64,000 bases of DNA, taken from NCBI GenBank assembly GCA_030390025.1, contig JASTWF010000334.1:62001-126000 (forward strand), written 5' to 3'. Below the pieces are notes generated by a model that saw only the letters and a program-made list of their open reading frames with translations, was not told the DNA's origin and did not search any database. This document shows, piece by piece, positions 44,146 through 63,574 of this stretch (positions within the stretch are counted from its first letter, which is position 1; every line of letters begins with the position of its first letter). Source of the DNA: Squalus acanthias. Its lineage: Eukaryota. Position numbers and translations under genes: made by a program.

Positions 44146-45517
44146 GACACCTTTGGCGGGCGTCCTCTGGGGTTGCGAACCTGTGAGGGCTCGGCAACAG
44201 TCTGCTGCTACTGCAGCTGTGCAGGGGTTAAGACGCCGATCTCAGTTGGGTGGGGAACCTGGTGTGGGGCTCTGACCGAGGGCTATGCAGTGGCATGGTC
44301 GTGTGAGCGCTTGGAGAGGAGCCCCCACTTCCTTGTTGTATGCCACCAACATCCCTCTCATGGGTCAGCCCCACTTCAGAGCTAGCAAGGGGCTGGACAG
44401 CACCTTGCTGCACTGCAGGTGGGCCATGAGGACCCGTTTCTGCACTGGAAGTCCTACTCCAGAGGACTTGCATGAAGGTCTGGTTTGTTTGCTCAATAGC
44501 TGACCATCGCTCCTCAAGAGATGTCAGTCTATTCTGAACAATTACCATGTTTTCCATACCCTGGCGACTAAGCTCTTCCATGGACATAGCCATCCTCTCC
44601 TCTACCGTAGCCATTCCCTACTCTACGGTAGCTAGCCTTACCAAGGAGGTTTCCATCCTTTCCGTGGTGATGCGTTCATGCGCCAATGCCTTTACAAAGG
44701 CTTTGCTCATGTTAGCGATGGACTCCTCCATTCGCTCCACACTCGCAGCGACCCTGGAGACAAAACCTGCCAGAGACTCCTGCACCTGTTCCTGGAGTTC
44801 CAGCACCGCTCTCCTTCTGGATGGACCCGGAGGCACAGGGTCGACATGCAGCGGAGCTGAGCTGGGAGTGTCCTCTCCACTGCGATGAGGACTCTCCACT
44901 GCTGTTCCTGTCTCCACCATCTGCTGATGCTCACTTGTGAGCTGTGATACACCAGGTGATAACTCTACTCTATGTCCCGAAGGTCCCACCGAGGTGTGAG
45001 TGTCTGCGCTGGTGCTGGGTGCGCTGAATTCTGCTGACGGAGCGCACTCAGAGGTTGCAGCTTCCTCTGAGGAGTCTTGAAGCTCAGGCTCTTCCTCCTG
45101 GACAGTGGGGATGGGGGCTCTCGATGGTCCTGTGGGGGAGTAAAGGAAAGAGTTAGAGATTTGAGGTAAAGGTTGCATGCACATTGAATTGTGCAGATGA
45201 CCATAAGTCAATCTGTTAGAGCATCAGAATCATTATCAGTCACTCATGCAAAGTCAATGAGAGAGATGCCAAACTATTCTGTCACCAGCTTGCTGTGATG
45301 CGCCCCCGTGTCCATCCCCCACTTGGGAATCCTCCTCGATCCCAGCAATTTCCAGGGCCGCCTCCTCCGAGGTGGTGAGCTGGGCTACTGAGGGTGGCGC
45401 TCCTCCTGTCCTCGCTCTTTCCCTCTTATTGTGGGCTCTCTTTTCCTGTAATGAGGGACACAAGTGGAGTTTGAGTGAGAATGAAAGAGTGAGTGTAGAG
45501 AATCCATAGCATAGATG

Positions 45518-47133
45518 TGTAGAATTCGCAATTATCGCGATTTCATTTTATTAAGGAGAAAACACAAGTTTCATTCAAAACAGCTTTTATTTCAGCGGAA
45601 TGCTGTCAGGTTTAAATTGGACACAAGCAGCCTGTAAAATGGCCGCCGCACCGCGTGACAGAACATTCGAGACTTTTCGGCAGGCAGACAAGATGGCGTT
45701 CCAATAAACATTTTTTTTTTGCAGGATCGATAACGATTCAGCACAGTGAAGACAATACACAGGACATTATGGGTTTACAGTATAAACATCGATACTGGGA
45801 TCGGTCTCCCAGGTACAAAGGAAAGCCATCAAGGGCCCATCCAAAGGACATTAATATGTAAACTCCCAACGGCTCTACGATGAGAGAGCCGTTAGCAGGT
45901 AGTTATACAGGACATTTGGAAGCCCCAAACCCCTCCAGGGGGAACACCGACCGATTTAACAATGGGAGAAGTATTAGCAGGTACTCAAACATTCAGGAGT
46001 AGCCCCGAAACCCATTAAAGACAGAGATCACCCATACAGGACTTTTTGGGCGCCAAACCTTAAACAAAAGAATGGACATTATAGTTGGGCGGGAAACGGA
46101 AGAACTGTGCACTATAATTGCAGGCCCAAACCGTCCATTCGCTCTCTTGCTCTTTTGCTCTTGACTCTTGCCGCTTGCTGCTGTTATCATCGTGGCTGCT
46201 CCTGTGTTTTATCCGGTCGATTCGTAACCTCGTGGCTGCTCCTGGGTAAAAGACTGTTGCAAAGACCTATGTTGGTAGCTGGCAGCGGAACCGAAGGCCC
46301 GGGATGAGATGAGATGAGATGAGAGGAGAAGAGAAGAAGACCTTATCCATCGCCACGGTCAGTAAATCCCGACCGCGCCTGTAGGTCGATCAGCCAAGTC
46401 TTCTTGACAACGAAGTTTTCTTCTTTAACAAGACATATTGCATCGACGATAACTGGACTGTGCAAACACATCGTATCAATGATATTGACAACGGTGCTCC
46501 ACCATACCCTGTATCCAACCAACAGAGGTCTTCACTACAGCGGACGGTCCAGCCGACTGACCGAGCAGCAGAAGCAGTAAACAAGTGGGACCAGGAGATC
46601 TCCTGACCAACACGTGGGTGCTGAGGTGGAAAACATCCGATCAGCTATTCGGGATTTCTCCGAGTTATTACGAGTGGTGAGCATGAGTCTCGGGATCCTA
46701 CGAAGCTAGTTTTAGGATAGTTATTGATAGGGGAGGGTTTAAAGTAAGGATATTTGTAATGTGTGCCCTATTTACGTTGTGCTGGTCGTTCCTCGTTTCC
46801 CTAAGAGTGATTATAACTGTTTGTAAGATTGTACTGTCATTCATCTGTGCATATGACATGTATTTCATAATTTTAAGTATCATGCAATAAAGATTTTCCA
46901 TTTCGTACCGTTCAAACCAAGTCTACATGAGTTTTATCTCCATTGCTGCTCTCGCATCTAAGTCCAGTGTCTAGAACCGTAAGGGAGAGTGATTCGAACC
47001 ACTCACAGGGGTGTCTAGTGTTCCCAGACTGGCTGGAGACCAGGCCTAGACCCGCACTGACATACAGGCTGCACAGAGCCGCGTGAACCTCACAGGTTAC
47101 GAGACACGCAGGGTCAGGAGAGTATCCCTTACA
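45518..47133 (+). repeat. 5' LTR (1616 bp)
   Basis: Repeated at a constant offset of 10993. GC box 46087, CGGAAG 46097, TATAAT 46113, AATAAA 46886, YY1-like AAAATGGCCGCC at about 45636. Confidence 0.97.
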
Positions 47134-47137
47134 GAAA

Positions 47138-48949
47138 ATGGCGACCGCGGCAGGACATTGGCAGCGAGAGGGTGGTGTGTTGGATTTTGGAATGACTGTA
47201 CGAAATGTGATGCAGGAAAAGATAGCGGATTACGTGTTTGGAAAGGTTAATCTAACGAAAAAGTGGATAAGCGAACTGTTAGCGGATAAGAGTCCACTAG
47301 AGGCAGCTGAAAGATGGACGGATAGTAAGGAGCATAAAAAGGCAGTTGAGAAAGCAGTCTGGCTTATGTGCTACAAAAGGCAGGTCCAGATTTCTAACCA
47401 GACCAATACAGCGCTAACCGCTCGAATCAAGCAGTTAGAGGAGGAAATGGAGGAGAAGGTTTCTGGAGGGGAGGTGCTCATTAAGAGTTTAAATGAGTTA
47501 CGCCAGGAAAGCCAGGAAGTCTCCAGCTACCTTAAAACAAGGGTAGAGTATCTCGAGTGCCAGATCACTGAAGCAAAATTAAACGAGAATAGGATGAAGG
47601 AAAGATGTAACCGTCAAGCTGCCCAGATAAGAACTCAAGAAGAGAGCTTAATGGGGGTTAGGTCGGCGTATAAGTTGGCCCTTGAGGATAAGTTTCAGGG
47701 AGCCGACCATAGCGCCTGCGAAAAAGAGATAGAGAGCCTCAAAAGGGCCGTGAATAATGCGAACGGCATGGTGTGCCTTATTAATCCGTCGGCACGCCAG
47801 CCGCTAGTAAATGAGAGATTTAGAAATTCCCCACCAAGTAAAGCAGAAGAAGTAGTAGCCACTGCGCCCTCCGCGCCACCCAGCTATTCAGAAACCTGGG
47901 TTAGGGAGGAAGCAACGGAAGAAACAAAAGAGCCCGTTGAAAAGGAAGTAGAAAAGGGATCGTTGTATCCAGTAACGGGGATTAAAAGGGGCCCAAGCAG
48001 AAACGGTGGGGAAGAACCGGGGGATCTCCTCGGACAGCTGGTGTTGCCTCACAGTTCACATCAGCTGAGGGCTATGATAAACCACGTAAGGAAGCTGACC
48101 GAGATAGACGACCCTTCCGTACATTTTAGGGAAGTTGAGCAAGCCGCAGCCATCAACGGCTGCGATGATGGGGAGACAGCAAAAATGCTGCTGTTCTCTT
48201 TAGATAGCTCGGTCCTTCAGTGTCTCTCAGGCGATAGCAAGAGGGGTAATAAAAGTTATGAGGAATTGAAAAATGAGGTCCTAGAAGTAGTGGGAGCGAA
48301 CGACGGAGGTCCGTTTGCTAGAGTGGGACAGACAGTGCAGATGGAGGGAGAACCCCCGAAGGTCTTTGCCGACAGGCTGTGGCCAGTATATGAGCGCAGC
48401 TGTCTAGGTGCGCCCGAGCGCGAAGATGTGGAAGGCGCCGCTTTAATTCATTGGCTTAGGTGCATAATAGCCAACAGTTTACCAGCCGTTAGAGAGCAGG
48501 CAAAAGCCTGGTTCGATCCCAATGACCTCAACCTTACGGAAGAGTCGGTCTTGAATCGACTCACGTTAGGTTACCGTAACATAAGGGGTATGGCAACACG
48601 TCCCTTTAAGGGAAGAGTACATGAGGTACGACCCGCAGCCCCGGCTCAAAGAGAGTGGCATCAGGAGGGTAATCGCGCCCCACAGGCAAGTAATGCCTGT
48701 TACGGGTGTGGGAAGACAGGGCACTGGCGCAAGCACTGCAGGAACCCTTGGAAGGATTCCAAGGATAAGAATCCCGCGGTCCGAGCCCAGGCGCCTGTCC
48801 CGGCTAAGGAAGCAAAGGTACCCACCTCTCCCGAAGACCTCGAAGCAGTGTTAGGAGTCATGCGCAAGATGGTTTTAAATGCGCGTGGACAGGTGGCGGT
48901 CGCAACCGGCCCCGTAGGTGCCGCAGGACCGTCTAATAGTGCCCCATGA
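47138..48949 (+). CDS. gag: Gag (603 aa): coiled coil, PSAPPSY late domain, capsid-like region, one CCHC knuckle
   Basis: CYGCGKTGHWRKHC at 48698-48739; PSAPPSY at 47867-47887; position directly after the LTR/PBS. Confidence 0.92.
   Translation: MATAAGHWQREGGVLDFGMTVRNVMQEKIADYVFGKVNLTKKWISELLADKSPLEAAERWTDSKEHKKAVEKAVWLMCYKRQVQISNQTNTALTARIKQLEEEMEEKVSGGEVLIKSLNELRQESQEVSSYLKTRVEYLECQITEAKLNENRMKERCNRQAAQIRTQEESLMGVRSAYKLALEDKFQGADHSACEKEIESLKRAVNNANGMVCLINPSARQPLVNERFRNSPPSKAEEVVATAPSAPPSYSETWVREEATEETKEPVEKEVEKGSLYPVTGIKRGPSRNGGEEPGDLLGQLVLPHSSHQLRAMINHVRKLTEIDDPSVHFREVEQAAAINGCDDGETAKMLLFSLDSSVLQCLSGDSKRGNKSYEELKNEVLEVVGANDGGPFARVGQTVQMEGEPPKVFADRLWPVYERSCLGAPEREDVEGAALIHWLRCIIANSLPAVREQAKAWFDPNDLNLTEESVLNRLTLGYRNIRGMATRPFKGRVHEVRPAAPAQREWHQEGNRAPQASNACYGCGKTGHWRKHCRNPWKDSKDKNPAVRAQAPVPAKEAKVPTSPEDLEAVLGVMRKMVLNARGQVAVATGPVGAAGPSNSAP
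47139..47156 (+). promoter_or_regulatory. Primer-binding site, tRNA-Arg(UCG)-like
   Basis: TGGCGACCGCGGCAGGAC is complementary to the 3' end of vertebrate tRNA-Arg(UCG) (...GTCCTGCCGCGGTCG-CCA, recalled from memory). Confidence 0.85.
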
Positions 48950-51900
48950 CTAGAACCAGCACAGCCCGTCTACCTGTGTCCGCTCAGCTATGATGCGTGG
49001 AGGCGACCTGTGGTGGAGATGGAGGTAGAGAAACAAAAGGGCAGTTATCTGTTGGACACGGGAGCTTCTTGCACCATAATCCATACAGATGACCCTTTTG
49101 ACTCGCCGCTATCTACCAAGGTCCCATTCACGCTAGCAGGGTTCACAGGGAAAGAACAGGCTGGCACGTTTTCCCTCCCGCTATCCATTCGTTTAGGAAC
49201 ACTTCGCTTTAAGTGGAAGTGTATACTGATGGCATGGCAAAAGGGGGGTGGAAGAGGTATTCTCGGGTCCGATCTGTTAGCGGGACACGGGATCCTCGTG
49301 GACCTCAGAAATCACTGTCTCTGGGGGGCTAAAGGGGAAAAAGGCGAAGTAATGGTGATTCAAGGGGAGGAAGAAACAGGGGTCCTGTGTACCGTACAGC
49401 CATCCGGAGGCTACGACCTCAGGCTTATGGTCGCAGATGTCCCAACGGACATGCAAACGTACGTGACAGATAATATGCACGCGTTTGCAACCCACAAGCA
49501 CGATTGTGGGAGGGTGGTCGGGTTTGAGGTCAGCGTAGATGGGGACCCCATGACCCGACCCCAAAAGCAGTATAACTTCCCCAAAGAAGCAGAACCCGAT
49601 ATGGAGGCAGCAATGTCTTCCTTGGTGCAGCAGGGCGTGTTGAGGCCGATAGCCACACACGTGAACTCCCCATTATGGCCGGTTAGGAAGCCGGATAATT
49701 CGTGGAGAGCCACGGTGGACTACAGAGTCCTTAACAGTAACATCCCCGCCTGCGCGCCCACAGTAGCAGCAGTTGCTGACCTAATAGGGAGCATCCCAGC
49801 GTCCGCGACCACGTTCACGGTGCTGGATATCTCGAACGGTTTTTGGTCCATCCCGCTGCGGCGAGAGGACCAGTACAAGTTTGCCTTTACGTTTAAAGGG
49901 CAACAGTACACGTGGAACTGCTTGCCACAAGGTTTCCACAATAGCCCCAGTATTTTTCACCAGTGTATGGCAGGGAGTTTAAAGGAGTTTAGTCAGCCCA
50001 ATCAGATAGTACAGTATGTGGATGATTTGCTCCTATTTACGGACTCAAGGGAGGAGCACGGACCACTGCTGGACGAGTTATTGGAGCTGTTAGCGAGAAA
50101 GGGTTTTAAAGTAAACCCAAAGAAAGCACGTATCGGTCAGCAGGAAGTAAAATTCCTGGGACTGACCCTACGCGCTGGGGAAAGAGCCATAGACAAAGCA
50201 AGGAGGGAGTCGGTGCAAGAATTACCGATTCCCAACAACGTAAGGGGTGTGAGGTCCTTCTTGGGACTGACCGGTTACTGCAGGGATTTTATCGAGGATT
50301 ATGCGGCCACAGCGGCGCCGCTCCTCCGACTCCTCCATAAGGGAGTAGAGTGGCTTTGGGACGAGGGCTGCCAAGCAGCCTTCGAGAAGTTAAAAAGGGA
50401 TCTGCAGACCGCGCCAGCCTTAGGGGCCATAGATGGGGGGAAGGAGTTTTTCCTGGAGGTAGCTGCCAGCGGAGACAGTTTAAGTGCCGTGCTGCTCCAA
50501 GAGCGTCACGGCAAGCTGAGGCCGGTTGTCTATTCATCCAGGGTATTAACGGATGTGGAGAGGAGTTTTTCCAATTGCGAAAGGCACCTTTTAGCCACGC
50601 ATTGGGCTGTGAAAAGATCAGCGATCTTCACAGGGCTCTCTCCCATCACTCTCCTCACACATCACACACCAACTAAGATGCTTCTGGATGGGAGGATTAA
50701 AGACGGGACCGTAAGCAGCGCACGCATTGCGCGTTGGACCCTTCTTCTCTCCCAGTTGGACATCAGAGTAAAAGGTCTTTGCGAGCCCAGGCTTGCGGCC
50801 AATTTGGTATACCCCGGTACAGCCCACCGGTGTTCGGTGGAGGGGGTGTGGGACGTCAACATAGGTTTACGGGCCGGGATACATCCCAATGGGCGCGAGA
50901 TTTATGTTGATGGGTCTAGCACAGTATCTGCTGGCGAGCGACTCACAGGGTGTGGAGTTTATGACCCTGCGGCAGACCTTGCCCTGGCGATCAAGCTCCC
51001 TAGCACCATGAGCGCGCAGCAGGCTGAGCTGTCTGCCGTGGTGTACGTGGTAACCCACCCAGACATTTTCCCAACCCCATACACGATTTGCTCGGACAGT
51101 ATGTTCACCTGCAATTCGTGTACGGAATACCTGGCCATCTGGTCCCGCCGTGGATACACCTCCGCGGACGGGCGACCTTTAACGGTAAAGCCCTTGCTGG
51201 AAAAGATCTTAGCAGCAGCAGTAGGGGAGGAAGGGGAGATTTTCATCCATAAGGTGAAAGCTCACTCCTCCACAGAGCCCCGTGGGGAGGGCAACCGGCA
51301 GGCGGATGCGCTAGCCAGGGAGGGTGCCCGCGACGGTACTTTCTGGAACCCCTATAGAACCGGACCCATAGCAGCGGTCCGAGGTGGGGACGGGAATACC
51401 GGGAACACCAGGGTAGCATTGCCCCTAGACCTTAAGACCGTCCAAGCCCAGGATCCCGCCCTAAAAGCAGTCCTAAAAACGATTGCTGAGGGGAGGCAGG
51501 TAGAAGGTCCGTACAGTACGGCAACCCTCTCAGTTAAGGAAGGCATGCTGTTCCGCGAGGAGCAGTGGGTTGTGCCGCAGCAGCACAGGAGGGAATTCCT
51601 CCAGTTGGCTCACGAGGGACCAGGGGCAGGGCACCCCGGGCCCGAGGTTACCTGGCAACGGGTAGAGCAAGCGGGATGGTGGCCAGGGCTCAGGGAACAA
51701 GTCCGCGAGTTCTGTGCAAACTGTCTTGTGTGCGCTGCAAACAACCCAGACCCCCAGAAAAGGAAGGTGCCCATGGGACACGTAAGAAGGGTAGAGGGAC
51801 CATGGCAGTCGATACAGATCGACTATATAGGACCCCTGCCCACCACCCAGGGAGGTTATAAGTACTGCCTCGTCCTGGTGGATGTGTTTTCCAAGTGGGT

Positions 51901-53452
51901 GGAAGCCTTCCCTTGTCGAACAGCTACGGCACTGGGTACAGCAAAAATCTTGGTCCGGGAAGTGTTCTCGCGGTGGGGACTCCCCCGTTTCGTGGAGTCA
52001 GACCAAGGGAGTCATTTCACCGGCCAGGTGATGCAGAACACCCTCATGCTTTTGGGCATTGAAGGGAAGTGGCACGTAGCACACAATCCCCAGTCATCCG
52101 GGATTGTTGAACGTATGAACCGGACCCTGAAGGAGAAATTGAGGAAAGAGACTAGGAACTCGCCCCAAAAATGGGCGGAAGTTCTGCCTTTAGTCCTCAT
52201 GGGGGTCCGGGCCAGTCAGTCAAAAAGTACGGGGTACTCCCCGCACGAGGTAATGACCGGCAGGCTCATGCGAACCCCCACCCATGTGCTAGCCCCGGTG
52301 CTCACTGAGGGTCAGCTTCAAGAGATCAGCAGGGACAAGTTCGCCCAAACTCTCTTGGAGCGCCTGAAGCAAGTTTATGAGCAGGCGGCTGGGAACATGG
52401 GAAGGCAGCACCAGGGCAATCGCTTGTTGCTGGAACCCCGCAAAACGCGGGAGTGGGAAGTAGGAGACCAGGTCATGGTCAGAAACTACGCCAGAGTAGG
52501 GAGTCTGGAACCACTGTATATGGGACCCTACAACATTGTAGACAAGGCAAGTCCCATGGTTTACGCCGTAAAAGTACCTCGGCGCACTAAGTGGTTCCAC
52601 ATAAACCAATGTAAACTGTACCAGCCGGGTGCGCAAGGGAAAACTACAGGGGTAAATCCCGCCAACGGGAAAACACAGCCCCAGGTAGGACCACAAGGCA
52701 CACAGGCAGGCGTAGCAGCTTGCATCAGGGGAAGGGACATCCCGGACGATCATGCAGCGTTTTTCTGGAGTTGGGGGTTAGATGACGAGGACCCCAGGGT
52801 ACCCTGGTCAGATGAGGATAGTGCAGATGAGCATAGTGATGATGACGGGTGGTTTCACAGGAACGGTCTGGAAGGATTGGGGCCGCTAGGTAGAGATCCA
52901 TACGGGGTGGACACACAAGCTGCAGGTCCCGACAGCAGGAGGAAGGAGCTAGAGGAGGCCGGGCCAGCCGCTATGTGGTTCCCAGAGGTGTGGCCGCCCG
53001 CTGTAAACGTCCAGTCCTCAGGGGAGGCAGAGTTCGCGAGTGAAGGGCCGCCTGCTGGGCCGAGCAGGGCGGGGCCCCGAACTGCCAGCCCCGAGGTTAG
53101 GGAGGCGGAGTCAGCGGAGGCGGGGCTGGCGCCTGTGATGGAACCCCAGGTCATCCCGTTGAAGGTCTCGGGACCCGGTCCGTCCGTCACGGAGCCCCCG
53201 CCCATAGCAGTTCCCCGTAGGTCAAGCAGAGCACCCCAGCCCAGGAAGACGTGGTCAGGTCCACAGGATGCCCCAGGGCGTAAGTTTCAGATTAAGATAA
53301 CCCGGGTAGAGACAGGCCACATCGAAGCAGTAACAGGCTGCGGCAGATCAGAGGAAAGGGTCAGCGCAGCAACAGGCTGCGGCAGATCAGAAGGAAGGGT
53401 CAGTGCCCTCCCACCGTCGGGAAGAGCTCGCAGCAGCCTTCTCAGGATTTAA
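48950..53452 (+). CDS. pol: Pol (PR-RT-tether-RNase H-IN plus long C-terminal tail), in frame with gag
   Basis: LLDTGA protease; LPQGFHNSP and YVDD RT; degenerate RH then IYVDGS/AELSA/SDS/ADALA RH; HHCC, DDE and GPY integrase. Confidence 0.96.
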   Translation, partial: LEPAQPVYLCPLSYDAWRRPVVEMEVEKQKGSYLLDTGASCTIIHTDDPFDSPLSTKVPFTLAGFTGKEQAGTFSLPLSIRLGTLRFKWKCILMAWQKGGGRGILGSDLLAGHGILVDLRNHCLWGAKGEKGEVMVIQGEEETGVLCTVQPSGGYDLRLMVADVPTDMQTYVTDNMHAFATHKHDCGRVVGFEVSVDGDPMTRPQKQYNFPKEAEPDMEAAMSSLVQQGVLRPIATHVNSPLWPVRKPDNSWRATVDYRVLNSNIPACAPTVAAVADLIGSIPASATTFTVLDISNGFWSIPLRREDQYKFAFTFKGQQYTWNCLPQGFHNSPSIFHQCMAGSLKEFSQPNQIVQYVDDLLLFTDSREEHGPLLDELLELLARKGFKVNPKKARIGQQEVKFLGLTLRAGERAIDKARRESVQELPIPNNVRGVRSFLGLTGYCRDFIEDYAATAAPLLRLLHKGVEWLWDEGCQAAFEKLKRDLQTAPALGAIDGGKEFFLEVAASGDSLSAVLLQERHGKLRPVVYSSRVLTDVERSFSNCERHLLATHWAVKRSAIFTGLSPITLLTHHTPTKMLLDGRIKDGTVSSARIARWTLLLSQLDIRVKGLCEPRLAANLVYPGTAHRCSVEGVWDVNIGLRAGIHPNGREIYVDGSSTVSAGERLTGCGVYDPAADLALAIKLPSTMSAQQAELSAVVYVVTHPDIFPTPYTICSDSMFTCNSCTEYLAIWSRRGYTSADGRPLTVKPLLEKILAAAVGEEGEIFIHKVKAHSSTEPRGEGNRQADALAREGARDGTFWNPYRTGPIAAVRGGDGNTGNTRVALPLDLKTVQAQDPALKAVLKTIAEGRQVEGPYSTATLSVKEGMLFREEQWVVPQQHRREFLQLAHEGPGAGHPGPEVTWQRVEQAGWWPGLREQVREFCANCLVCAANNPDPQKRKVPMGHVRRVEGPWQSIQIDYIGPLPTTQGGYKYCLVLVDVFSKWVEAFPCRTATALGTAKILVREVFSRWGLPRFVESDQGSHFTGQVMQNTLMLLGIEGKWHVAHNPQSSGIVERMNRTLKEKLRKETRNSPQKWAEVLPLVLMGVRASQSKSTGYSPHEVMTGRLMRTPTHVLAPVLTEGQLQEISRDKFAQTLLERLKQVYEQAAGNMGRQHQGNRLLLEPRKTREWEVGDQVMVRNYARVGSLEPLYMGPYNIVDKASPMVYAVKVPRRTKWFHINQCKLYQPGAQGKTTGVNPANGKTQPQVGPQGTQAGVAACIRGRDIPDDHAAFFWSWGLDDEDPRVPWSDEDSADEHSDDDGWFHRNGLEGLGPLGRDPYGVDTQAAGPDSRRKELEEAGPAAMWFPEVWPPAVNVQSSGEAEFASEGPPAGPSRAGPRTASPEVREAESAEAGLAPVMEPQVIPLKVSGPGPSVTEPPPIAVPRRSSRAPQPRKTWSGPQDAPGRKFQIKITRVETGHIEAVTGCGRSEERVSAATGCGRSEGRVSALPPSGRARSSLLRI

Positions 53453-53735
53453 AGGGGCCGCCCTGAGAACGGGCGGCATTGTAAAGTTATTAGTTTAAGG
53501 TTTTAAGTTTTAGTTTAAAGTTTTAAGTAGTTTTAATAAGTTTAAGTTTGTAGTGGTTTTAACAGATAACGACAAATGATGGGAGTTTTAAGGCTAGGTT
53601 TAGAGGAAGTCTGTTCAGCAAACGTTGAAGTTTACGTGAGGCGAGGTCAGGGGACCCGCTCACCCTTCACAAAAGCCAGAGACTTTTTGCGAGGCTGGCT
53701 ACCTCATTCTATCTGATCACAGGAACCAAGGAAGG

Positions 53736-56087
53736 ATGGAACGACTCATAGTATTGCTCGTGGCAATCGGATGTGGATTGGCCTATCGGGGCCTCACCAA
53801 GGATGTCGTGGTGTTTGGATGTTCCGGGGACACGGCCCCCATCGCGGTGGATGGGACCGGGAGACGGAAGGCAGAAGGGACCAGCACCTATTTCCACAAG
53901 GGAAGGTGGCCAGGATGGCTGGGAACGAACTCAACGGAGTATTCCAGCACATCGGGGTTCGCCTACAAAGAGACTTCTTTAATGTGCCCCAAAGTACGGA
54001 TCATCGCACCCAGGATCAGCGTCACCGTCGGCAAACGGATTTGTTTGACTTGCAGTGGGAATGTCCCATTGAGCCGATGGTGGTGGCTGCGAAAGCTGAG
54101 CAAAACTATGAGGAACTCTTCGGTTGAGTGGGAGCGACTGGGTAATAATACCCATCGGACAATTACGGGGACTGATGGACAAGTGAAAGTCTGTTGGGAC
54201 AAATGGTGGGAACCAGATGAGGGGATTTATGTTTGTATGTGGGGGTCAAAGTACGTTTGCCCCAAAGGCATCTCCATATTCTTTATTAACCAGTGGCAGG
54301 ATAACGGACAGGGGATGAGGTGGGATGCGAGCACCAGGGGGTGCGGAGCCCCATTCTCCCCGATCCCAGTAAATGCCACTGAGCTCATTACGCGCCCACG
54401 CAAAGCCCCGCCCACGATTCCGGTAGTTCTAACTGAGGAAGAAGGGTGCCCTAAAACTAGTAAGGGACCCGGGAACGGTTTGGTACTGGTCCCCACAGAC
54501 CAGATACTATTTCAGGGGGTGCATTACGCGGTGGCCTCGGTGATTTTAAATCTCACTGAGGTACGGTTACCAGAGTGGTGCCCCAAAAAGACGGAACAGT
54601 TGTACCAGGTCCTGTTGACCAAGATGTTCAGGCAGTTTTACGAGTTCGATTTCGCGGAAATTGATAAGACAAGTTTATACACCGCACCGCAGGAAGTTTT
54701 GGACCAAGTTGGGAGGCAAAGAAGGGGTTTGGTGAACGATGCGTTCACTGCTTTTAACACAGGGACATCTGTGGTCAACGCTCTAGACAGTGTGGAGCTG
54801 CAGACCCAGATTAATGGTTTAAAAACACAGTTAAAGGATATTCTCACAGATGAGAATAAAGTGGTAGGGTCGGGTCTGCACGAGGACCAAGCCATGACAC
54901 TACACTTAAAAGAGATTATAGCAGAGCTGGAGAAACATGCGCGTACGGTAAATGCCCTGATTAGGGAAGATCGGAATGCATCCGATCAAGCTGCGCAGAA
55001 CGAGGTGTGCGTGCTTTACGGGGCGTGGTTACTGGGCGAGGGCCGCAGTAATTTGGAGGATTTAAAACAAGGTTTGGTCCCGTCCTGGATAAGTAACAAA
55101 CACCTGCGGGCGCTCCACCCTTTTCAGAATGCATTAAGTCCGTGCCAGCTCAGGCTAGCTTCAGAAGCTTACCCAGTCCCCGTGGACTGCGGACGTTCAA
55201 ACCATACTATTATGGGAATAGTATTACGCATGCCGGTTTTGGGCAACACAGCAAAGCCCGCCCCGGTGTATCGGGTAGAGAACATTGGTGTCATTCAGGG
55301 GGGAGCCCACATTCGTTATGCAGCGGTTCCACCTTACGTCATCCGCTGGGAGCAAACGATGACAGGTACAGATCTCTCTGGTTGTCGTGGCAGGGGAGCA
55401 CACATAATACTGTGCCCCCAGCACTTGAATGCCTTTTTAACACCACAGTGCGGGTTCAGAACGGCTGGCGCCAAGTCCATGAATTGCACCATGGAGGCAA
55501 TGGCACAAGATCATGTGCCTCCGCAGGTAGCATACATCGGGGGTGGAACATATTGTGTTACCACTGCAGCGCAACACTACCAGCATGGAAACCGTAGCCG
55601 GTGTCCGGTGAGTGACAGCAGTTTCTGTTTTAAACCCAGGGCTGAAGTTCAAGTAGCACAACAGCGAATTATCCCAATCCCTGAACCATCCACTGTTCAT
55701 CTCACAGTAAAAGAGAATTTTACCGACTTGCAGCGATTTGTCGCACATTTTGGGTACCTCATTCCCCCTCTCCCTGAGCATTTAACCAAACTTCTGAAGG
55801 CCGTCGCGGTGTCACAAAAGCATTTCTATACTTTAGAACAGAAAACCGTCGAGATAGGTACAGACATTTTGGACATAGTGGTTCCACCGTGGTGGAATCT
55901 GTTCACGAATATTGAAGTGCCCTCATGGGTCAGAATAGCCTCCCACATTTTAGTCGTATGTCAAGTGTTTATTGTAGTATACCTTTTGTTTATACATTGT
56001 AAAAGAGACAAGCGCCTCACCAAGCATGAGAACACGGGAGAGTGGCGAGAACGTTACGTGCGCGTGCACGATGAGAGCGCAGTGTAA
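53736..56087 (+). CDS. env: Env-like glycoprotein (783 aa): signal peptide, Ig-like domain, RQRR furin site, fusion peptide/heptad, Cys-rich region, TM anchor
   Basis: Hydrophobic N-terminus; acceptor ...atcacAG at 53721-53722; RQRR|GLVNDAF at 54714-54725; several N-X-S/T sequons; TM IASHILVVCQVFIVVYLLFI. Confidence 0.92.
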   Translation: MERLIVLLVAIGCGLAYRGLTKDVVVFGCSGDTAPIAVDGTGRRKAEGTSTYFHKGRWPGWLGTNSTEYSSTSGFAYKETSLMCPKVRIIAPRISVTVGKRICLTCSGNVPLSRWWWLRKLSKTMRNSSVEWERLGNNTHRTITGTDGQVKVCWDKWWEPDEGIYVCMWGSKYVCPKGISIFFINQWQDNGQGMRWDASTRGCGAPFSPIPVNATELITRPRKAPPTIPVVLTEEEGCPKTSKGPGNGLVLVPTDQILFQGVHYAVASVILNLTEVRLPEWCPKKTEQLYQVLLTKMFRQFYEFDFAEIDKTSLYTAPQEVLDQVGRQRRGLVNDAFTAFNTGTSVVNALDSVELQTQINGLKTQLKDILTDENKVVGSGLHEDQAMTLHLKEIIAELEKHARTVNALIREDRNASDQAAQNEVCVLYGAWLLGEGRSNLEDLKQGLVPSWISNKHLRALHPFQNALSPCQLRLASEAYPVPVDCGRSNHTIMGIVLRMPVLGNTAKPAPVYRVENIGVIQGGAHIRYAAVPPYVIRWEQTMTGTDLSGCRGRGAHIILCPQHLNAFLTPQCGFRTAGAKSMNCTMEAMAQDHVPPQVAYIGGGTYCVTTAAQHYQHGNRSRCPVSDSSFCFKPRAEVQVAQQRIIPIPEPSTVHLTVKENFTDLQRFVAHFGYLIPPLPEHLTKLLKAVAVSQKHFYTLEQKTVEIGTDILDIVVPPWWNLFTNIEVPSWVRIASHILVVCQVFIVVYLLFIHCKRDKRLTKHENTGEWRERYVRVHDESAV

Positions 56088-56498
56088 TGAGAAGATGGCG
56101 TCACTCCCGCTCGCCACGTGCGCCGCGGAAGTTTGTACTCAGTGTAAATACGTTGGAAACTCGACATGTTTAAGAGTCGGGATTTGTTTATTTCGGTGAT
56201 GGTGTTGATTGTTTGGTTTTTTGGGTTTTGTTTTTCCTTTCCCTGAATAAAAGATAAATATACAGGTGATGCGTGAGGTATCGGCCTGGTTACGCCGGGA
56301 AGGAAAACAAGTGGTGTAAGTTTAAGGGCAAATGATGCCTATGGTGATATAAAGTGTGATTTTCTTGGGAAATAAGGACGACACAGAGACCCTAGTGAAG
56401 TTAAAATTTTATGGGATTAATTTACTGGATTCGGAGTGAAATCGAGATAAGATTGCTCACCACTGAGTTTTGATACGATAAGCGGAGTTATTCGCATC

Positions 56499-56510
56499 AA
56501 CAGGAGGGAC
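56499..56510 (+). promoter_or_regulatory. Polypurine tract
   Basis: aacaggagggac immediately before the 3' LTR. Confidence 0.7.
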
Positions 56511-58126
56511 TGTAGAATTCGCAATTATCGCGATTTCATTTTATTAAGGAGAAAACACAAGTTTCATTCAAAACAGCTTTTATTTCAGCGGAATGCTGTC
56601 AGGTTTAAATTGGACACAAGCAGCCTGTAAAATGGCCGCCGCACCGCGTGACAGAACATTCGAGACTTTTCGGCAGGCAGACAAGATGGCGTTCCAATAA
56701 ACATTTTTTTTTTGCAGGATCGATAACGATTCAGCACAGTGAAGACAATACACAGGACATTATGGGTTTACAGTATAAACATCGATACTGGGATCGGTCT
56801 CCCAGGTACAAAGGAAAGCCATCAAGGGCCCATCCAAAGGACATTAATATGTAAACTCCCAACGGCTCTACGATGAGAGAGCCGTTAGCAGGTAGTTATA
56901 CAGGACATTTGGAAGCCCCAAACCCCTCCAGGGGGAACACCGACCGATTTAACAATGGGAGAAGTATTAGCAGGTACTCAAACATTCAGGAGTAGCCCCG
57001 AAACCCATTAAAGACAGAGATCACCCATACAGGACTTTTTGGGCGCCAAACCTTAAACAAAAGAATGGACATTATAGTTGGGCGGGAAACGGAAGAACTG
57101 TGCACTATAATTGCAGGCCCAAACCGTCCATTCGCTCTCTTGCTCTTTTGCTCTTGACTCTTGCCGCTTGCTGCTGTTATCATCGTGGCTGCTCCTGTGT
57201 TTTATCCGGTCGATTCGTAACCTCGTGGCTGCTCCTGGGTAAAAGACTGTTGCAAAGACCTATGTTGGTAGCTGGCAGCGGAACCGAAGGCCCGGGATGA
57301 GATGAGATGAGATGAGAGGAGAAGAGAAGAAGACCTTATCCATCGCCACGGTCAGTAAATCCCGACCGCGCCTGTAGGTCGATCAGCCAAGTCTTCTTGA
57401 CAACGAAGTTTTCTTCTTTAACAAGACATATTGCATCGACGATAACTGGACTGTGCAAACACATCGTATCAATGATATTGACAACGGTGCTCCACCATAC
57501 CCTGTATCCAACCAACAGAGGTCTTCACTACAGCGGACGGTCCAGCCGACTGACCGAGCAGCAGAAGCAGTAAACAAGTGGGACCAGGAGATCTCCTGAC
57601 CAACACGTGGGTGCTGAGGTGGAAAACATCCGATCAGCTATTCGGGATTTCTCCGAGTTATTACGAGTGGTGAGCATGAGTCTCGGGATCCTACGAAGCT
57701 AGTTTTAGGATAGTTATTGATAGGGGAGGGTTTAAAGTAAGGATATTTGTAATGTGTGCCCTATTTACGTTGTGCTGGTCGTTCCTCGTTTCCCTAAGAG
57801 TGATTATAACTGTTTGTAAGATTGTACTGTCATTCATCTGTGCATATGACATGTATTTCATAATTTTAAGTATCATGCAATAAAGATTTTCCATTTCGTA
57901 CCGTTCAAACCAAGTCTACATGAGTTTTATCTCCATTGCTGCTCTCGCATCTAAGTCCAGTGTCTAGAACCGTAAGGGAGAGTGATTCGAACCACTCACA
58001 GGGGTGTCTAGTGTTCCCAGACTGGCTGGAGACCAGGCCTAGACCCGCACTGACATACAGGCTGCACAGAGCCGCGTGAACCTCACAGGTTACGAGACAC
58101 GCAGGGTCAGGAGAGTATCCCTTACA
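56511..58126 (+). repeat. 3' LTR (1616 bp)
   Basis: All five small ORF translations and the T10 run match the 5' LTR. Confidence 0.97.
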
Positions 58127-58950
58127 GATGTTTAGAAGGAGACAAAGGGCCCTCCCTGTGTGTTGTAAGTTGTTGTCATTGTGTCACAGTGATAGGGAGT
58201 GTGAGGGCTGTATGGTCGAATAGTTAAGTGAATGTGACCATAGAGAGAGAGGGAATGGGTAAGGGTGCAGGGATGTCAGTGTCAAGTGGGATGTGGAGGA
58301 AGAGGTTGGCAAAGCTGAGTGCTGGTGAAGAGAGGCGCTGGGGATCAGATTGAGGGTGATGGGAAAGTCATACTCACTTTTCCTGCGCAGAGAAGTTCAT
58401 GAAACCTCTTCCTGCACTGCAGCCAGGTTCTGCGGCTCATTGATATGGAGTTGACCTCCTGGGCCACTTGCAGCCACACAGCTTTAGTCTGTTGTGGTGG
58501 CTTTTTTCTCCCTGAGGAAGGGAAGAGCACCTCGTTATTAGATCTTGCTCCCTGCACCAGAGCTTGGAGGGAGGGCTCATCAAAGCGAGGTGCACACTTT
58601 TGCTTGCTGGTGGACATGGTCGGTAAATGAAGTCCTTCATACAATGTCCAAAGCGTTTCCAGTCTCCAGAAGAATCAAGGCTGCTTGCAGGCCTTAAATC
58701 CAACAGCATTGATGAGGTCATCGGAAGCGACTTTCAGGATGGAAAGACTCATTGGGCTAGTGGTTCCCACACGCAGGAAATCAATTTCCCAATTAGGGGA
58801 AAATCCCACTTTTCCAACACATCACTTAGGAGTCGGGGTCCTGACACGATTTCCACCTGACACGCCCCAGCCCGCCCACACTGACAAAATCCAGCCCTAT
58901 GATTCTATATTGTCATCGTTTGACAGCTCTGTGAAGCTGTCAAACACTGA

Positions 58951-60855: not shown

Positions 60856-63574
60856 GGCCGCGATTTTCACAGCCCCGAGGAGGGGGGTTTGGAGGCGGGA
60901 CTGTTGGGAAAATCGCAAAAAGTGAGCCCGGGTTCGGAACCCGCCTCCAACCTGCCTCTGCGCAATTATGCCGGAAGCGGGTTTGACGGGTGCAATTCGG
61001 TCCCGCCTCCATCAGTCAAGAGAGGTAGTTAAGACCCTTAAATAGTCGTTAAGGACCTCTATAATCCTATTTCGACAGGCCTTTGTTATTTTGCCACATT
61101 TTGCACGTGTTGTACGACCCTCCTAAACCACACCAGTTGATCCTGGCGGGTTGACAAGTGGATGGCCTCCTCACAGCTGCAGCTCCACCATTAAAACGGA
61201 GCTTTCATCAGGGAGCAGTTGCAGGTGGCAGAACTTTTGTTCCACAGGTCTTTCAGCACTTTTAGCAGGCCTACCGAAGTCGGAGATGCTGCAGCTTCTA
61301 TCTCTCAACTGTGTGACCTCCTTGGAAAACCCTCTCCCCGCTTGGAGTGAGCGCTTCCCCAACGAAGGTATCTGCCAGCAGCATGGGAACCATTTATTTC
61401 CTTTCATCATGGACCTCAGATTCGGATGAGGAGCAGCCACGGCAGCAGGAGCGCCAACCTCCTGCTCACCCACCTGATGCTGCACAGGGCAGAAGGTGCC
61501 AGCACATGGCAGCACGTCGCCGCAGGAGATACCCCCTCTCAGGGTTTACAGACAGAGGATGAGCTACCTCAACATGAGTGAGCAGCAGTACCAAAGGAGG
61601 CTGAGGGTTTCACGAGAGGTTGTCGGAGACACCTGCGCACTGCTGCAACCAAACCTGGAGCCCAGAGGAACGGCTGGACACCCCTTACCAGTGGCTGTCA
61701 AAGTCACCACCGCACTCAACCTTTTTGCCTCAGGCTCCTTCCAGGGATCATCAGCAGACATCAGCGGCATCTCCCAGTCGGCCGCCCACAGTTGCATCAC
61801 GCAGGTTATCGATGCCCTTTTCGCAAAGGCGTACATTTACATGCACTTCTCAAGGGATCAAGCAAGTAGAACCGCGTGTTCAGTTGGCTTTGCAAATATG
61901 GCAGGCTTGCCAATGGTGCAGGGTGTCATAGACTGCACACATGTGGCCCTTAGGGTACCACATCACAACCCAGCTATCTTTCTCAACCACAAGGGCTTCC
62001 ACTCCCTCAACGTACAGCTGGTGTGTAACCACAAGAAGGAGATTTTGCATTTTTGCGCCAAGTTCTGTGGTAGTTGCCATGACTCGTTCATCCTGCGGAG
62101 CTCCAGTGTTCCTATGCTCTTCAATCCGCCAAACCAACTTAATGGATGGCTTCTTGGTGACTGAAGAAGTGGCTAATGACGGCGATCAAGAGGCCAGCTA
62201 ACGAGGCTGAGGTGCGCTACAACGACAGCCACATATCGACCAGGTCCATCATCGAGCAGACCATTGGTTTGCTGAAGATGCGATTCTGATGCCTTGACAG
62301 AGCAGGTGGAGCCCTGCAGTATTCAGCAGCCCGGGTCTCCAGAATGGTCGTGGTCTGCTGTGCACTGCACAACATGGCACAGCATCGTGGCTTACAGCTT
62401 CCTGATGAGCAAATGGTTTAGTTCATAGCCTCCTCAGATGAGGATGAGGATGAGGAGGAGGAGGATGAGGATGACCGAGTGGCGGCGTATCTACCAGGAG
62501 CAGTGGCAGCGCGCGAGCACATGGCTGCCCGTGATGCAAGGGAAGCACTCATCCTGGCCTGATTTGCATAGGTTGCCCATTGTGGCACATGTGACTGGCT
62601 CCTTCTTAACACATGATAGACAATGGACATGACTTTCTGGCCTCCTTTCACTCTGACCACTAACCTGACCATGCAAGTGTCGCGGAGCCCGCAATGTGGA
62701 GCTGCCTAAGCCGAAATAACAGATGTCATCACGCCAACAGTTTGCCATCACCTCATTTTAATACATTCACACAGGGATGGCATTTCATCAATAAACAGAA
62801 ACAATCACCAAAGAGCCTACCCCTGTGACTAATAGTGCTTTATTTTTCTCTTACGCGTGCTCCTACATGGTGCTCCCCCTGTGGCTTCAGCAGATGTGGA
62901 GGCACCTTGCTCACTTTCATGCTGCTCCTGCTTCGACACCTTTGGCGGGCGTCCTCTAGGTTTCCGAGCCTGTGAGGACTCACCAAATGTCTGCTCATCC
63001 TGCGGCAGTGCAGGGGCTGAGATGCCCATCTCAGTTGGGTGCGGACTCTGGTGGGGCTTTGACCGAGGGCTACGCAGTGGCATGGAAGTGTGAGTGCTTG
63101 GAGAGGAGCCCCCACTTCCTTGTTCTCTGCCAAGGGTTATATCCCTTGCCAGCTGGACCCACACAGCCTTGGTTTCTTTGGGAGGCCTCTTCCTCCGAGA
63201 AGAAGGGAAAAGCACCTCCCTGCTAGCTCTCGCCCCCTCAACCAGGATACCCAGCGCCTCATCCAAGAACCTCGGGAGGCCCTTGCCTTGGAGCTGGTCA
63301 TTCTACAATGAGATAAAAGTTTGGAGGTGGTGCAGCATCGACCAAAAACCAGTGGAATGAGCCAAGGCAGCAAGCAGCCCTTAAATGAAGCTGGATAAGT
63401 GACATCAGCAGAGGCGAGTTTCAGTCCCAAAAGACTAATTGGCCCAGGGGAACCCACACCTCTGAAATCAACTGGCCAATTAGGGGAAAATCACAAATTT
63501 TTCCCACCTCTCAGTGGAGGCGGGTTTGGAACCCGCCCAAACCGAAACCCGCCTCCAATGTGAAAATCGCCCCC
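60856..63574. mobile_element. Harbinger C: transposase pseudogene (+, about 61400-62560) and deleted Myb/SANT gene (-, 62829-63300)
   Basis: TIRs ggccgcgattttcaca / tgtgaaaatcgccccc with TTT flanks. HARBI1-like motifs GVIDCTHV, NHKGFHSLNVQLVC, HDSFIL and WLLGD. Confidence 0.88.

Follow-up and report, generated by a model that had tools for sequence, protein, structure and literature searches.

The window analysed here is a 64,000-nucleotide (nt) stretch of the Squalus acanthias assembly GCA_030390025.1 (contig JASTWF010000334.1, positions 62,001 to 126,000 of the forward strand), and positions are counted from its first letter. It carries a provirus in which gag and pol share one reading frame and are separated by a single UGA stop codon followed directly by CUAG. 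The hallmarks of a Retroviridae provirus are all found, namely long terminal repeats (LTRs) with TG...CA ends, a target-site duplication, a primer-binding site, a polypurine tract, and gag, pol and env. Sequence analysis suggests, with a probability of about 0.87, that ribosomes enter pol by programmed readthrough of this stop at 48947 and so produce Pol as part of a Gag-Pol fusion. The features of the element are listed below.

45514-45517 (no strand): target-site duplication, left copy, 4 bp; identical four bases flank both LTRs
45518-47133 (+): 5' LTR, 1,616 bp, TG...CA, matching the 3' LTR at every position
47138-48949 (+): gag open reading frame (ORF), 603 aa with a single CCHC knuckle; two relatives share 46% and 39% identity
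47139-47156 (+): primer-binding site, starting TGG, 5 nt past the LTR; overlaps the first gag ATG at 47138
48947-48953 (+): candidate readthrough site, UGA stop plus CUAG (CCA 48944-48946, TGA 48947-48949, CTAG 48950-48953)
48950-53452 (+): pol frame, 1,500 codons; protease, reverse transcriptase (RT), tether, RNase H, integrase, long C-terminal tail
48952-49172 (+): RNA stem-loop predicted to form a rod of 84 pairs, its strong basal helices beginning at 48959, 9 nt past the stop
49055-49063 (+): protease active-site DTG
53736-56087 (+): env ORF, 783 aa; weak immunoglobulin (Ig)-like stretch, furin-type site, F-type-like ectodomain, transmembrane segment
56499-56510 (+): purine-rich tract upstream of the 3' LTR
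56511-58126 (+): 3' LTR, with the right copy of the target-site duplication next to it at 58127-58130

The stop codon and its conservation

The reading frame of gag, open from 47087 to 48949, is also that of pol, so no frameshift is needed to join them, and no slippery site was found in a usable place near the junction. Between 48600 and 49200, TGA 48947 is the sole stop in this frame, compared with 8 and 11 in the two alternative frames. Past the stop the frame opens with LEPAQPVYLCPL and contains its first ATG at 49019 (residue 24), 12 codons ahead of the one at 49055 that encodes the catalytic Asp (residue 36). The Pfam protease match begins earlier, at residue 17, seven residues upstream of Met24. 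Given the composition of the provirus, CTAG would follow a given stop by chance with a probability of 0.002-0.004. A sequence-only reading of this DNA had described a gag end of CCA-TGA-CTA-G at 48944-48953, a frame that stays open into the protease, and no ATG until just before the active site; the letters read exactly so, with a single stop and then 1,500 open codons.

That reading also named a sense codon in other copies as one of the results that would unseat it. At least half of the junction's words are present in 19 of the 24 sequencing runs listed, which come from 12 studies; no RNA run is among these 24, and no inference was drawn from this. Contigs were compared for four runs (four studies and four organism labels, one possibly the source of the window itself), with variants judged from 40 of 54 rows and contig pieces from 32 of 481. 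No variant falls at 48947-48953 among those listed for the four runs, and the neighbouring positions 48945 and 48961 vary in all four. Two of the 32 contig pieces (one from X2, one from X7) cross the stop without any difference, with at least 35 letters on each side. In several runs, contigs have loose ends at 48945/48946 and 48981, which mark a divergent family whose match is confined to the stop and the 30 nt after it.

Related Gag proteins end at the equivalent place. From the zinc knuckle to the end of the protein there are 69 residues here, compared with 68 in P0109 (46% identity) and 64 in P0110 (39%), the two closest full-length Gag relatives, and the longest of 31 Gag relatives has 628 aa. 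As a weaker indication, a search for longer proteins containing Gag yielded none from 3,037 candidates, and close relatives showed no fused Gag-Pol. Because contigs from two other organisms keep the stop and Gag relatives end there, the UGA is a feature of the lineage rather than damage. Scans of viral contigs found no relatives of the element, and 80 distant metagenome loci (23-40% identity) were set aside unused.

The predicted RNA structure and the readthrough mechanism

The 234 nt that begin at the stop fold with a predicted energy of -99.7 kcal/mol (z -6.36), and none of 200 shuffled sequences was as stable. In this predicted rod a short outer helix comes first, followed by the main stem 9 nt from the stop. 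When gag, pol and env were scanned in 225-nt windows (25 shuffles per window), the rod window had the lowest z of 88 (-6.2), the next being -4.3 and the median -1.25. Shorter folds near the stop, five in all and 76-131 nt long, did not reach significance (z -0.83 to +0.59). A fold of the downstream 100 nt, which had been proposed as a check, likewise gave nothing significant (z -0.42); structure emerges only at about 230 nt with this method, which cannot predict pseudoknots. Among 14 variants listed within the rod, five are unpaired, seven keep a pair and two break one, and the basal 5' arm holds one listed variant in 56 nt where 4.4 would be expected (P 0.066). One contig (depth 3.45) joins 48979 to 49139, linking the two arms of the basal stem, and each arm shows a depth bump; neither observation was given weight as evidence.

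Under programmed readthrough, most ribosomes would halt at the UGA and release Gag, and a minority would insert an amino acid and continue through protease, RT and integrase, thereby setting the ratio of Gag to Gag-Pol. Residues usually inserted at UGA are Trp, Arg or Cys. The CUAG directly 3' of the stop would set the leak, and the rod starting 9 nt downstream would probably raise it, as stems do in alphaviruses. In reporters, genes carrying UGA-CUAG show about 7-31% readthrough (four mammalian genes), and UGA-CUA alone gives 1.5% (PMC4132726), which bears out the earlier description of UGA-CUAG as a leaky context in vertebrate genes. At alphavirus UGA-CUA sites, a 3' stem after a spacer of 8-12 nt lifts readthrough 3- to 14-fold (PMC3159437). 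By this analogy, stimulation of readthrough by the rod is somewhat favoured. Support for the proposal that Pol is made by UGA suppression comes from a stop that lies in frame and is conserved, from the CUAG next to it and from the predicted fold; the occurrence and level of readthrough, the inserted residue and stimulation by the rod are all inferred from sequence.

Several observations weigh against this interpretation. Contigs drop rare variants. The annotation of a coelacanth relative, P0003, whose Pol is 40% identical, shows one fused protein in which Gln stands where the stop would be, and fused gag-pol is annotated in 8 of 22 lokiretrovirus entries listed; thus, the stop is not universal among relatives. 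A z of -4 or below is also found in four further windows of the scan, which means that stable folding is no rarity in this genome. Pair-breaking variants in the rod are fewer than expected, but not significantly so (2 of 14, with 35% expected, P 0.086), and no two-sided compensatory change is found among the listed variants. For these last two reasons the rod must be regarded as well predicted but short of proof. Finally, the Candida element Tca2 has a gag-UGA-pol arrangement whose junction directed no readthrough in a yeast reporter (PMC2194720), a warning by analogy that such an arrangement may not guarantee context-driven readthrough.

In P0003, a Gln-Gly pair occupies exactly the place of the stop, which would fit a lineage that uses or has lost a UAG-G site (protein sequence only).

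Known systems and competing explanations

The junction can be compared with several known readthrough systems. The gammaretrovirus Moloney murine leukaemia virus also has a single in-frame stop between nucleocapsid and protease active site and, beyond about 8 nt of spacer, a 3' RNA structure, but its signal is UAG-G with a 50-nt pseudoknot, in place of UGA-CUAG with a 220-nt predicted rod. The gamma- and epsilon-type signal (UAG-G plus a compact pseudoknot) is therefore not what the element carries, since it reads UGA-C. It had been stated that gamma- and epsilonretroviruses read through UAG. A 2026 review of readthrough in animal viruses does list UAG for gamma-, epsilon- and snakehead retroviruses (PMC13517186), but UGA at gag-pol is already on record there for salmon swim bladder sarcoma virus, zebrafish endogenous retrovirus (ERV) and a Rhinella marina ERV (section 4.1.2), so that the statement holds only in part. 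These three share with the element a gag-pol UGA in retroviruses of aquatic hosts; they differ in being epsilon-related, in reading UGAAGA, UGACGA and UGAAGU with no CUAG, and in having cis-elements that are undescribed in the parts of the review available. Because three fish and frog retroviruses have UGA, its use instead of UAG is not in itself unusual; the CUAG context and the rod are.

The closest parallel in signal type is the alphavirus nsP3-nsP4 opal site (type II), which combines UGA-CUA(G), a spacer of 8-12 nt, a long-range 3' stem and a polymerase downstream. Here the stop is followed in frame by CUA (type II sites have CUA or CGG), and a strong predicted fold follows after a spacer within the 7-12 nt range of a type II 3' stem-loop, with the non-significant variant lean noted above. 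Alphaviruses are unrelated, however, and their experimentally tested stem of 10-12 bp closes a large loop, whereas the predicted rod is a nearly continuous 84 pairs. The host genes OPRL1, OPRK1, MAPK10 and AQP4 carry the identical UGA-CUAG heptanucleotide, and the AQP4 extension is conserved back to cartilaginous fish (PMC4132726); these are short C-terminal extensions of host proteins that require no structure.

The most durable alternative is itself a variant of programmed readthrough and compatible with it. CUAG alone might suffice, with the rod being incidental or serving packaging, dimerisation or protection from nonsense-mediated decay. In four mammalian genes, 12 nt past the stop gave full readthrough (PMC4132726), and the rod lacks proof by covariation; moreover, packaging signals may sit inside coding sequence, given that the primer-binding site abuts gag. 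On the other hand, the lowest-z of the 88 windows begins exactly at the stop, the 9-nt spacer agrees with known stimulators and the basal 5' arm is poor in variants (P 0.066 as above). Sufficiency of CUAG is a credible possibility, although on this evidence a tentative one.

A separate Pol, translated from ATG 49019 on a spliced mRNA or from an internal promoter in the manner of foamy viruses or Tca2, is very unlikely. This ATG does have a G at both -3 and +4, there is a pyrimidine-rich AG at 48987, a relative of 82% identity has Met at the equivalent place, and a minor junction promoter has been described in Tca2 (PMC2194720). Yet two out-of-frame ATGs (48990 and 48993) separate that AG from 49019, a Pol begun there would be missing the first part of the protease domain (matched from residue 17), and in four frog relatives the first Met stands two residues ahead of the active site. 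A separate Pol also leaves the 23 open codons and the CUAG after the stop unexplained.

Even less probable is editing by ADAR of the A of UGA to inosine in some RNAs, to be read as Trp, with the rod recruiting the enzyme. The amber/W site of hepatitis delta virus provides a precedent, a long imperfect duplex adjoins the stop, and a wider fold pairs the UGA with 48858-48860 (probability 0.66), but the stop lies outside the rod, its 5' G is the neighbour least favoured by ADAR, and conservation of CUA is explained by readthrough and not by editing. A nonsense mutation private to one copy of a fused gag-pol gene has precedent in fused forms of distant relatives, but has been largely refuted already and is extremely unlikely given identical LTRs, the stop kept in contigs of other organisms, Gag relatives that end at the equivalent place and a chance of CTAG below 0.4%. 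Selenocysteine decoding, for which only a stem downstream of the UGA speaks, can be dismissed as negligibly probable, with no selenocysteine insertion sequence family among four Rfam matches (E up to 1, 45400-58300) and a linker at the position of the stop.

Classification of the element and origin of the signal

The provirus is a recent insertion, since its 1,616-bp LTRs are identical, a 4-bp duplication flanks it, and gag, pol and env are all open. These LTRs are unusually long, with AATAAA at 45703 and 46886, and no accessory ORF longer than 65 aa was seen in 45518-47133. The primer-binding site presumably matches tRNA-Arg. A conserved Met about 24 codons past the first gag ATG may be the true start of Gag; the 39%-identical Gag opens with six residues equal to those at gag ATG 47138. 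The integrase core is followed by an acidic, Pro-rich tail of about 270 residues (52630-53452) with a short C-terminal repeat.

Pol has the RT-tether-RNase H (dual RNase H) arrangement. A quick RT tree of 103 rows with few named references places the element within the retrovirus clade (43 of 103 rows, SH-aLRT support 98), its nearest Pols being those of coelacanth and frog ERVs (38-46% identity). By its RT sequence the element thus appears to be a true retrovirus and not a lokiretrovirus; its RT, with LPQGFHNS, groups with retroviral rows, and the Loki-like P0025 falls outside, this being the one proxy row for that lineage, recognised by motifs in the lokiretrovirus supplement. Three relatives of Env were found, all from cartilaginous fish, and these are the sole ground for regarding the element as probably a retrovirus of such a fish. 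Atlas language-model features of its ectodomain score 0.91-0.92 to the Baculo_F and Fusion_gly clusters, so that by these features only Env looks F-type-like, as in lokiretroviruses. Env gave no Pfam match, including PF00523, and no sequence match in the PDB; its Ig-domain match is weak (E 0.03), and a structure model (pLDDT 34) was unusable. An Env with F-type features of this kind sits on a retrovirus with a non-Loki RT.

Membership in ERV4 (no zinc finger, no GPY/F, 5-bp duplication; Chong et al. 2014) was rejected, since the element has one knuckle, GPY in the integrase tail and a 4-bp duplication. A candidate placement near snakehead retrovirus (SnRV) is plausible. That clade shares one zinc knuckle and in-frame gag-pol readthrough and includes shark ERVs, but SnRV reads UAG-GGC (PMC13517186). 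No SnRV row was among the RT relatives compared. The junction motifs had no match in the elephant-shark ERV supplement. Of the 14 supplementary files of PMC10435555, one was searched for three RT peptides and gave no match, although line breaks or alignment gaps could hide one.

Lokiretroviruses (Wang and Han 2021) resemble the element in gag-pol-env order, dual RNase H, an Env that looks F-type-like by the features above and in-frame UGA-CUA at gag ends; they differ in that the element has an RT of the retrovirus clade, a compact protease-RT and no separate smc gene that could be seen. Among the 22 entries listed in the supplement of PMC7947760, frames were read by eye in Loki-Ofa, -Pyo, -Sau, -Bsp, -Dcl, -Lro, -Tfu and -Cne. 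Six of seven lokiretroviruses with a separate gag have in-frame UGA-CUA (three CUAG, three CUAA), the seventh reading TGN-CTAA, and Loki-Cne additionally has UGA-CUAG. TGACTAG in Loki-Lch was rejected as a junction signal, being out of frame, and 13 of 17 TGACTAG matches in the supplement lie away from any junction. A term search of the available text of PMC7947760 and PMC9040795 found neither "readthrough" nor "stop codon", and "lokiretro" was not found in the available text of the readthrough review (PMC13517186). No literature linking lokiretroviruses with readthrough was found, nor any report of a retroviral UGA-CUAG in a search whose scope excluded subscription journals and Repbase.

It can be speculated that UGA-CUA(G) and a long stem 3' of it make up a third, hitherto overlooked retroviral gag-pol signal, common to lokiretroviruses and the cartilaginous-fish lineage with F-type Env by descent or by ancient recombination at the gag-protease junction, and possibly older than the UAG-pseudoknot and the frameshift. 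This is unlikely. UGA-CUA recurs across unrelated viruses and host genes, and therefore convergence is the more likely source of the parallel.

Elsewhere, the window contains six ORFs with RT domains within 11088-43729 (probable LINE fragments), a piece of DDE_Tnp_4 transposase at 61478-62164, and tandem arrays of 33, 23 and 60 nt units.

Retroviruses are known to control the ratio of Gag to Pol by frameshifting, by UAG-pseudoknot readthrough or by splicing. Readthrough of a gag-pol stop is thus already familiar, and what is new is a signal of UGA-CUAG plus a long stem in a retrovirus. An alphavirus-type signal in a young retrovirus, together with UGA-CUA at most annotated gag ends of lokiretroviruses, would add a route to the control of Gag and Pol, and would mean that in vertebrates a single leaky-stop code has been reached convergently by viruses and by host genes. 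The junction offers a short reporter cassette for examining how CUAG and 3' structure combine. Annotation would also be corrected, as the pol ORFs of such elements are now called from internal start codons.

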